The position numbers were made by a program, and so were the translations under genes. Below, in pieces: positions 8,788 to 9,694 of a stretch of DNA of 40,625 nucleotides; position 1 is the stretch's first letter, and every line of letters begins with the position of its first letter. The DNA lies in sequence record PV714130. One strand, written 5' to 3'. The notes below the pieces were generated by a model. That model did no database searches. It was given only the letters and a program-made list of their open reading frames with translations, and was not told the origin of the DNA. Origin of the DNA: Escherichia phage Pipis.

Positions 8788-9239
8788 TGGCCCAATGGTC
8801 TGCAAAACGGGGGCACTCTGTGGGTGCCTACCGCTCTGGACTTGAAGCCAAGAACCAGCAGTGGCTGGAACAGAACGGCGTCAAAGCGGAGTACGAAAGC
8901 CATTATATCAACTATGTGATTCCGGCTTCCGACCACAAGTACACACCAGACTTTATCCTTCCAAACGGTATCATCGTGGAGACCAAAGGAATCTTCGCAG
9001 TGGAAGACCGTAAGAAGCACCTTCTGGTACGAGAACAGCACCCAGAGTTAGACATCCGGTTCGTGTTCTCAAGTTCCCGCTCCAAGTTATACAAAGGGTC
9101 TCCGACCACGTATGGCGCATGGTGCGAAAAGAACGGCTTTAAATTTGCCGATAAATTCATCCCGGTTGAGTGGCTGCGAGAGGCGACTGTACGTCTGCCT
9201 TCAGGTATACTCATCCCCAAGAAGAAAGGAGTTAAGTGA
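8787..9239 (+). CDS. 3: endonuclease I (Holliday junction resolvase)
   Basis: YVIPASDHKYTPDFILPNGIIVETKG...DRKKHLLVREQHPELDIRFVFSSSRSKLYKGSPT closely matches recalled T7 gp3. Confidence 0.9.
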   Translation: MAQWSAKRGHSVGAYRSGLEAKNQQWLEQNGVKAEYESHYINYVIPASDHKYTPDFILPNGIIVETKGIFAVEDRKKHLLVREQHPELDIRFVFSSSRSKLYKGSPTTYGAWCEKNGFKFADKFIPVEWLREATVRLPSGILIPKKKGVK

Positions 9240-9694
9240 TGACTACCTGTAAAGACCTTGAAGTTGGAACACGTTACAGATTCTCAAAGAACACACTGTT
9301 GAATAACCCCAGCTTCACTGATGCTGTTTTCGAAAAGCGAGAAGACCATAGCGTAATTGTGGAGAAGGGGTGGCATCCTGAGGATTATATCGGTGAGACT
9401 ACCAGCTGGAATGGTCACGAGACCTACAGTGTAGAAGTTGTTGACCAGCCTCAAGTCCTGCCAGCTTCGAGCGTACCTCCTGTGACTGTGAAGCGTGAAG
9501 TCCTGACAATCGACAAGATTGGTGTAGGCCAGACGTTCATCGTCCATGGAAAGCCTGAAGAAGTTTACGTGAAGATTAGCAACTCACACGTCTTCAACCA
9601 TAAGCGTCTCCAGATGCACACCACGGACGCACAACGCTTCACCCAGCACCTGAATCTAGTGGTCGTAGAATTGGTGGTGTACAATGGTAAGTAA
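9239..9694 (+). CDS. hypothetical protein (151 aa) inserted between genes 3 and 3.5
   Basis: ORF with RBS AAGGAG 7 nt upstream of the ATG overlapping the gene 3 stop; no recognisable motif. Confidence 0.5.
   Translation: MTTCKDLEVGTRYRFSKNTLLNNPSFTDAVFEKREDHSVIVEKGWHPEDYIGETTSWNGHETYSVEVVDQPQVLPASSVPPVTVKREVLTIDKIGVGQTFIVHGKPEEVYVKISNSHVFNHKRLQMHTTDAQRFTQHLNLVVVELVVYNGK

Follow-up and report, generated by a model that had tools for sequence, protein, structure and literature searches.

Gene 3.2 of Escherichia phage Pipis lies between gene 3, encoding endonuclease I, and gene 3.5, encoding an amidase. We analyzed it within the sequence record PV714130 (40,625 nucleotides, hereafter the window). 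Comparison with homologues showed that its product, gp3.2, has a two-domain build in which an optional N-terminal module is joined by a proline-rich linker to a conserved basic core. Finding gene 3.2 is not news in itself; it is a long-annotated hypothetical of Kayfunavirus, a genus applied in therapy and engineering (K1F, LM33_P1, CLB_P1). What is added here is its anatomy, namely a near-invariant 67-aa core and an N-domain that otherwise near-identical genomes exchange, lack or carry twice. By this pattern, the locus becomes a candidate determinant of host range or counter-defence. Among the possible roles we tentatively rank first that of a host-interaction or counter-defence adaptor. The gene and its parts are as follows.

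9226..9231, + strand: Shine-Dalgarno sequence AAGGAG of gene 3.2, read from the sequence, with a 7-nt spacer to the ATG
9239..9694, + strand: gene 3.2 coding sequence (CDS), 151 aa, 17.2 kDa, stop included, from the list of open reading frames (ORFs) and the sequence
9239..9448, + strand: N-terminal exchangeable domain of type A, aa 1-70, acidic, pI 4.8, predicted SH3-like beta-barrel
9449..9490, + strand: proline-rich linker PQVLPASSVPPVTV, aa 71-84, conserved in alignments, of low predicted confidence (pLDDT), the downstream boundary of the cassette
9491..9691, + strand: C-terminal core domain, aa 85-151, basic, pI 9.5, predicted SH3-like beta-barrel
9578..9640, + strand: invariant motif S114-N-S-H-x-F-N-x4-Q-M-H-T-T-x3-R-F134, from the columns of alignment A2

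The C-terminal ~67 residues were nearly invariant in the alignment of homologues. In the window protein the extended motif Y-x3-SNSH-x-FN-x4-QMHTT-x3-RF occupies aa 110-134, and the motif columns were invariant in alignment A2, including members that are only 32-54% identical. Judging from this conservation, SNSHxFN-x4-QMHTT-x3-RF is likely the functional surface of the core domain. The N-terminal 55-80 residues fell into at least five types without detectable mutual similarity.

Type A (this window, Vec13, LNA3, PhiNW-B1): signature MTTCKDLEVG..., 26 phage records
Type B (K1F, EcoDS1): ...GWPxGTIVTKC...GMWGAWV..., 56 phage records
Type C: ...YKFPVTVTGTV..., 2 phage records
Type D: ...KAIIVDL..., 11 phage records
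Type E: CR8-like

All hits of the type A to D N-domains in phage records were located directly after the endonuclease gene and nowhere else. We rejected a relationship of the types as diverged homologues of each other as well as an origin of the N-domain by duplication of the C-domain, the hhalign probabilities being <12% for both. An apparent A-B match in hhalign was an artefact of the tandem variant P0121. In this metagenomic homologue (226 aa, L038 115-795) a type B and then an A-like N-module stand in tandem ahead of the C-domain; therefore, N-modules can be stacked. At the other extreme, many phages, mostly of Salmonella, Citrobacter and Cronobacter, carry a core-only gp3.2 of 74 aa (PMC4925675). 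Two further metagenomic homologues are irregular in their N-domain of type B: in P0124 (103 aa) most of it was removed by an in-frame deletion, and in P0044 (157 aa) it is scrambled by an apparent frameshift pair and reads through to an intact C-domain. Both may be genuine degenerate alleles or products of faulty assembly.

The borders of the exchanged segment were apparent at the nucleotide level. Compared with phages carrying other types, the window was 85-100% identical through gene 3 up to ~9250. Between ~9251 and 9449 the identity dropped to 20-40%, which is unalignable, or the comparison with the 74-aa forms gave a clean gap. The long forms (types B and A-like) returned to 80-100% identity from the linker through the C-domain and gene 3.5, and for type E and the 74-aa forms the identity recovered only further downstream, from ~9500-9560. 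By this profile, the replaceable segment measures ~200 bp and is flanked on both sides by conserved substrates for recombination. The GC content of the segment is 0.45 versus 0.50 for the flanks and the genome. The sequence-only reading had described gene 3.2 as an inserted gene. This holds for the N-terminal half (~9251-9448), which behaves like an exchangeable insert, but the gene as a whole is the standard gene 3.2 of Kayfunavirus. Nor is it an unusual insertion, since the C-domain was found by tblastn in 220 phage records and had the same position wherever the context was examined.

Besides, ORFs of HNH homing endonucleases immediately adjoin the locus in three closely related phages: SD6 (L032 1686-2057), PH1061 (L034 1685-2056) and TM1 (L033 788-1234). 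In SD6 and PH1061 the HNH gene is situated between genes 3.2 and 3.5 and starts at the overlapping ATG position that is used by gene 3.5 of the window; in TM1 it is situated between genes 2.5 and 3. The window contains neither HNH insertion. Homing-driven co-conversion might have helped the spread of N-domain alleles. We also considered the N-domain as target of a diversity-generating retroelement and rejected this, as the variation from type to type is wholesale replacement and not adenine-site mutagenesis. Moreover, no second copy of 9239-9450 that could serve as template was present among the 20 largest of at least 60 direct repeat families; no explicit search for a reverse transcriptase was made.

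Selection was estimated by Nei-Gojobori counting in 12 distinct genes of type A and 12 of type B together with the neighbouring genes. The nonsynonymous (dN) and synonymous (dS) divergences were the following.

Type A, N-domain: dN 0.028, dS 0.065 (bootstrap 0.03-0.10), dN/dS 0.43
Type A, C-domain: dN 0.021, dS 0.34 (bootstrap 0.24-0.47), dN/dS 0.06
Type B, N-domain: dN 0.29, dS 1.18, dN/dS 0.25
Type B, C-domain: dN 0.041, dS 0.49, dN/dS 0.08
Type B genomes, gene 3: dN 0.048, dS 0.29, dN/dS 0.17
Type B genomes, gene 3.5: dN 0.038, dS 0.33, dN/dS 0.12

For gene 3.2 as a whole dN/dS was ~0.11. According to these counts the core of gp3.2 is under very strong purifying selection, and the N-module, with a dN/dS of 0.25-0.43, is constrained coding sequence as well. 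The protein sequence of the N-module evolves ~6-7 times faster than its surroundings. In the type A genomes, where the dS of genes 3 and 3.5 amounted to 0.19-0.24, the dS of the N-domain was fivefold below that of its own C-domain. This indicates that type A is a young allele which has recently moved and spread onto already diverged backgrounds; the type B alleles are older than their flanks. Among 61 type B sequences the entropy was concentrated at few positions between invariant scaffold residues (GWPxGTIVTKC...GMWGAWV).

Structure prediction, proposed as a check in the sequence-only reading, yielded two putative small SH3-like barrels, and the fold searches gave no specific relative. With the type A alignment, AlphaFold2 modelled residues 1-70 of the N-domain with a pLDDT of 82-93 as five strands and one short helix. 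This alignment was too uniform for the C-terminal part (pLDDT <50), and residues 66-151 were re-modelled with divergent homologues. The second model gave a C-domain of six strands with a pLDDT of ~90 in its core. Both domains of gp3.2 are predicted to be small SH3-like beta-barrels. The predicted domains superposed on SH3-like folds over 50-60 residues at 2.2-2.7 A, among them FeoA, the C-terminal domain of DtxR/IdeR, KapB, Tudor and KOW, and the likeness to these is one of fold only. In a Foldseek search against BFVD the significant hits were exclusively family members, followed by weak similarity to uncharacterised phage proteins of 70-85 aa. The C-domain has a net charge of +3, and no catalytic or ligand-binding signature was recognisable in gp3.2.

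The ORF at 9239-9694 is close to certainly the orthologue of Kayfunavirus gene 3.2, because the surrounding window is 98.3-98.6% identical to annotated relatives, the gene is annotated at this position in K1F and EcoDS1, and the protein matches PHROG 16385 and 15211. The identity values refer to positions 8000-11000 compared with the Escherichia phages vB_EcoP_LNA3, PhiNW-B1 and Vec13. This region matched 248 phage records, essentially all of them Kayfunavirus (K1F-like Studiervirinae). Vec13 annotates an ORF of the same 456 nt at the same place as 'hypothetical protein' HOT77_gp20, and the protein translated from the Vec13 genome copy in IMG/VR (L002) is identical to gp3.2 of the window. The gene at this position is named 3.2 in K1F and EcoDS1, gp3.2 in Cronobacter phage Dev2 and 3.01 in CR44b. 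The PHROG matches cover aa 66-151 (phrog_16385, E 3.4e-51) and aa 82-151 (phrog_15211, E 4.9e-40), both families being of unknown function. The window protein thus combines all three marks of the gp3.2 family, i.e. the profile match, the invariant C-domain motif and the position between genes 3 and 3.5. It is already catalogued as a hypothetical protein, and its gene is no novelty here.

Among 5.8 billion proteins, a word-indexed search retrieved 254 relatives of gp3.2. When 1.84 billion representatives at 50% identity were scanned in full with a hidden Markov model (HMM) profile of the type A subfamily, only 14 clusters were found, all of the same family; the gp3.2 family is therefore narrow. 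The same scan revealed no relatives in bacterial genomes and none outside the family, hence no host homologue and no sequence-level sign of host derivation or mimicry. The most divergent members, P0127, P0129 and P0131, have C-domains 32-54% identical to that of the window. P0127 and P0129 are encoded directly between Phage_endo_I and Amidase_2 with overlapping junctions. At the P0131 locus, which belongs to a distant T7-like relative (L035), an extra ORF of 118 aa (4456-4812) without a Pfam match stands between gp3.2 and the amidase. The junction of genes 3 and 3.5 therefore takes additional genes in other lineages, too.

The sequence-only reading had noted no recognisable motif in the ORF, and the searches agreed. 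Pfam gave no family at E<=1, with no membership of FeoA (PF04023) or another SH3-type family, NCBIfam gave no match, and a PDB sequence profile search had no match at E<=10. Homology to a protein of defined function, named beforehand as counter-evidence to that reading, was found in none of these searches. The PADLOC defence profiles produced no hit for gp3.2 of the window; only a type D variant had one marginal match, PDC-S35, with an E value of 0.004. Rfam returned nothing in the window. In the limited literature searched we found no published function for gp3.2 or gene 3.2, and the term 'gp3.2' occurred only in one gene table. A description of its domain-cassette behaviour was likewise absent from the searchable part of the literature, which does not prove novelty.

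The neighbours of the gene were assigned by profile matches.

8787..9239, + strand: gene 3, endonuclease I (Holliday-junction resolvase), the upstream neighbour, Pfam PF05367 Phage_endo_I, E 2.1e-81
9684..10142, + strand: gene 3.5, N-acetylmuramoyl-L-alanine amidase (T7 lysozyme homologue), Pfam PF01510 Amidase_2, E 1.3e-16, and PHROG 822, E 4e-80

The ATG of gene 3.2 is located at 9239-9241, its first A being the last base of the gene 3 TGA (9237-9239). The frame comprises 151 codons up to the TAA stop at 9692-9694, and the ATG of gene 3.5 at 9684 produces an overlap of 11 nt with its end (9684-9694). The ORF had been described as well initiated, and the AAGGAG, the ATG overlapping the gene 3 stop and the 11-nt overlap with the gene 3.5 start were all seen. 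Such overlaps at start and stop fit with translational coupling to the genes on either side. A GTG at 9236 is in frame with gene 3.2 and represents a possible alternative start; the ATG is favoured because all homologues start with M-T/I-T. The gene is on the same strand and has overlapping junctions with genes 3 and 3.5 in the window, K1F, EcoDS1, CR44b and others. It had also been claimed to be missing from T7. Accordingly, genes 3 and 3.5 are directly adjacent in the T7 reference record, likewise in that of T3, and no gene 3.2 lies between them. A survey of related phages, which the same reading had proposed, revealed a gene that is genus-wide in Kayfunavirus and absent from T7 and T3, with its N-domain swapped or missing in places.

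An adaptor role of gp3.2 in host interaction or counter-defence was ranked first because variable segments between core genes typify accessory genes, many of which are counter-defence genes. An enrichment for counter-defence functions has been described for variable genes between conserved core genes in phages (bioRxiv 10.1101/2023.04.06.535777). As such an adaptor, gp3.2 would be a non-essential accessory protein of host takeover or counter-defence which combines a conserved docking domain with a swappable recognition domain. The core domain would bind a conserved partner (a protein of the host or the phage, or a nucleic acid) via the invariant polar motif, and the N-module would add or tune specificity for a strain-variable host factor, most plausibly one of host defence. 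The N-barrel itself has been replaced repeatedly by cassettes of unrelated sequence via recombination in the conserved flanks, with the linker on one side and the 3' end of gene 3 on the other. It is doubtful whether gp3.2 even represents a new family of modular adaptors, in which the invariant barrel docks, the N-barrels capture strain-specific factors and their exchange re-targets counter-defence. If this were true, the exchange would parallel tail-fibre tip swapping in a non-structural protein. If the N-types map to sensitivity or resistance towards host defence, they would offer a handle for predicting or engineering strain-level host range in the genus.

Several observations weigh against the adaptor role. 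Pfam, NCBIfam, PADLOC, PDB sequence and fold searches provided no homology-based link to a function. Positive selection on the N-domain is suggested by the divergence data, but its overall dN/dS is below 1, and relaxed constraint could account for the fast evolution of this domain. In distant relatives gp3.2 is strictly placed between genes 3 and 3.5, which would suit a phage-internal role just as well. Finally, the adaptor idea was drawn solely from architecture.

The amidase inhibits the phage RNA polymerase in T7. By a rather unlikely alternative, gp3.2 would be a phage-internal regulator whose C-domain binds endonuclease I, the amidase, the phage RNA polymerase or the replication and transcription machinery. 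It would tune DNA processing or the middle-to-late switch, with the N-domain as a dispensable appendage. All examined homologues down to 32% identity are indeed encoded between Phage_endo_I and Amidase_2 with overlapping start and stop codons, although T7-like phages keep the order of almost all their genes, which makes synteny weak evidence. A near-invariant C-domain is expected for a conserved phage partner, and from the 74-aa form the core would work without any N-domain; however, T7 and T3 manage without gene 3.2, and the repeated replacement of the N-module as well as its ~6-7 times faster evolution compared with the neighbours would be left unexplained. Somewhat less probable still is a nucleic-acid-binding protein whose basic C-barrel (Sm/KOW/Tudor-like) would bind RNA or DNA, for example in protecting or processing transcripts or replication intermediates. 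The pI of 9.5 and net charge of +3 of the C-domain would suit such a function, as would the location of gene 3.2 among DNA-metabolism genes and the fold matches, which included ribosomal L2, KOW-like EF-P/eIF5A, Sm and Tudor.

The N-modules might also be neutral passengers, placed in frame before a real 74-aa gene by recombination or by co-conversion during homing at a recombination hotspot. The HNH genes beside the locus in SD6, PH1061 and TM1 point in this direction, and so do the absence of the module in many phages, the deletion in P0124, the scrambled N-domain of P0044, the recent spread of type A and the lower GC content of the cassette (0.45 vs 0.50 in the flanks). However, the dN/dS of the N-domain is 0.25-0.43 and not ~1, the type A domain is confidently predicted as a compact barrel (pLDDT ~90), and type B keeps an invariant scaffold across 61 sequences. 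Moreover, an A-like domain was kept in P0127, whose C-domain is only 54% identical to that of the window. We therefore regard neutral passengers as improbable. The suggestion that 9239-9694 is no gene and stands open only by chance between two real ones, for which the missing database motif could be quoted, can be put aside almost entirely. It is refuted by conservation, and the ribosome-binding site, the overlaps with the neighbours, purifying selection and the confident fold predictions contradict it as well. By comparative evidence the ORF is a real gene far beyond chance, because its homologue is annotated as CDS in the checked related phage records carrying annotation, 254 homologues exist and dN/dS is low.

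The closest counterparts of gp3.2 are those of K1F and EcoDS1. They share the position and the overlaps, and their C-domains are 97-100% identical to that of the window with the same motif, whereas their type B N-domain has no detectable similarity to type A. The 74-aa proteins of Dev2, Citrobacter SH3-SH5 and many Salmonella Kayfunaviruses are ~80% identical to aa 78-151 of the window protein and occupy the same locus, but lack the N-terminal domain and linker entirely. SspB is a known two-part adaptor with a substrate-binding barrel, a flexible linker and a conserved docking element. The likeness to gp3.2 is an architectural analogy of layout only, with no sequence or specific structural match; in gp3.2 the docking part is a folded domain and not a peptide, and there is no sign of protease delivery. 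The accessory regions of phages described by Silas et al. (bioRxiv 10.1101/2023.04.06.535777) resemble the locus in being short variable segments with conserved flanks, horizontal exchange and fast evolution that are dispensable in some phages. In gp3.2, however, what varies is not a free-standing gene but a domain joined in frame to a conserved one. Neither the sequence motifs of gp3.2 nor K1F and EcoDS1 were found in the text supplementary files of that study.

Gene 3.2 apparently belongs to the phi2.5 transcription unit together with genes 2.5, 3, 3.5 and 3.7, because the site at 8020-8046 is the only predicted phage promoter upstream. By analogy to T7 it would be a middle (class II), non-structural gene.

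8020..8046, + strand: promoter of the phage RNA polymerase, K1F-type consensus CTAAACTATCACTRTAGGA, equivalent of phi2.5, ahead of gene 2.5, repeat family D1/D2
10374..10398, + strand: weaker phage-promoter-like site at the end of the gene 3.2 transcription unit, repeat family D3

EcoDS1 annotates promoter phi2.5 at the place equivalent to 8020-8046; for 10374-10398, a promoter at the equivalent place is annotated in EcoDS1 as well as in CR44b. Repeat family D1/D2 comprises ~11 K1F-type promoter copies (CTAAACTATCACTATAGG[A/G]) across the window and agrees with the K1F consensus given in the ASO2B record. Between 7900 and 10700 two terminator-like sites were found versus 2.4 expected in shuffled sequence, none of them within or next to gene 3.2. 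Sigma-70 promoter-like sites likewise showed no excess over shuffled sequence.

Some further features were observed in the window. K1F-type promoters (AACTATCACTATAGG[A/G]) are located at 2239, 5317, 6964, 8031, 17029, 20259, 21258, 25666, 33382 and 39644, with weaker sites at 10374 and 34603; this promoter set fits a complete Kayfunavirus genome of ~40.6 kb. In another reading frame, a GTG-initiated ORF of 71 aa (8630-8845, + strand) reaches from the end of gene 2.5 into the start of gene 3, and its position corresponds to 'gp2.55' annotated in K1F and CR44b. The ORF at 10167-10382 (+ strand), between the amidase and the primase/helicase, encodes the gp3.7 homologue (phrog_1950, E 1e-25; Pfam DUF5471 below threshold). 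It is followed by an ORF of 59 aa at 10451-10630 (+ strand), which is annotated as hypothetical in Vec13, and the promoter-like site at 10374-10398 is situated between the two. A perfect tandem repeat of 15 nt (ACCTACAGTCTAACT) with at least three to four units extends over 40524-40578, close to the right end of the window; a related copy is present at 40593-40613, and 7118-7138 and 23409-23429 contain a similar word.
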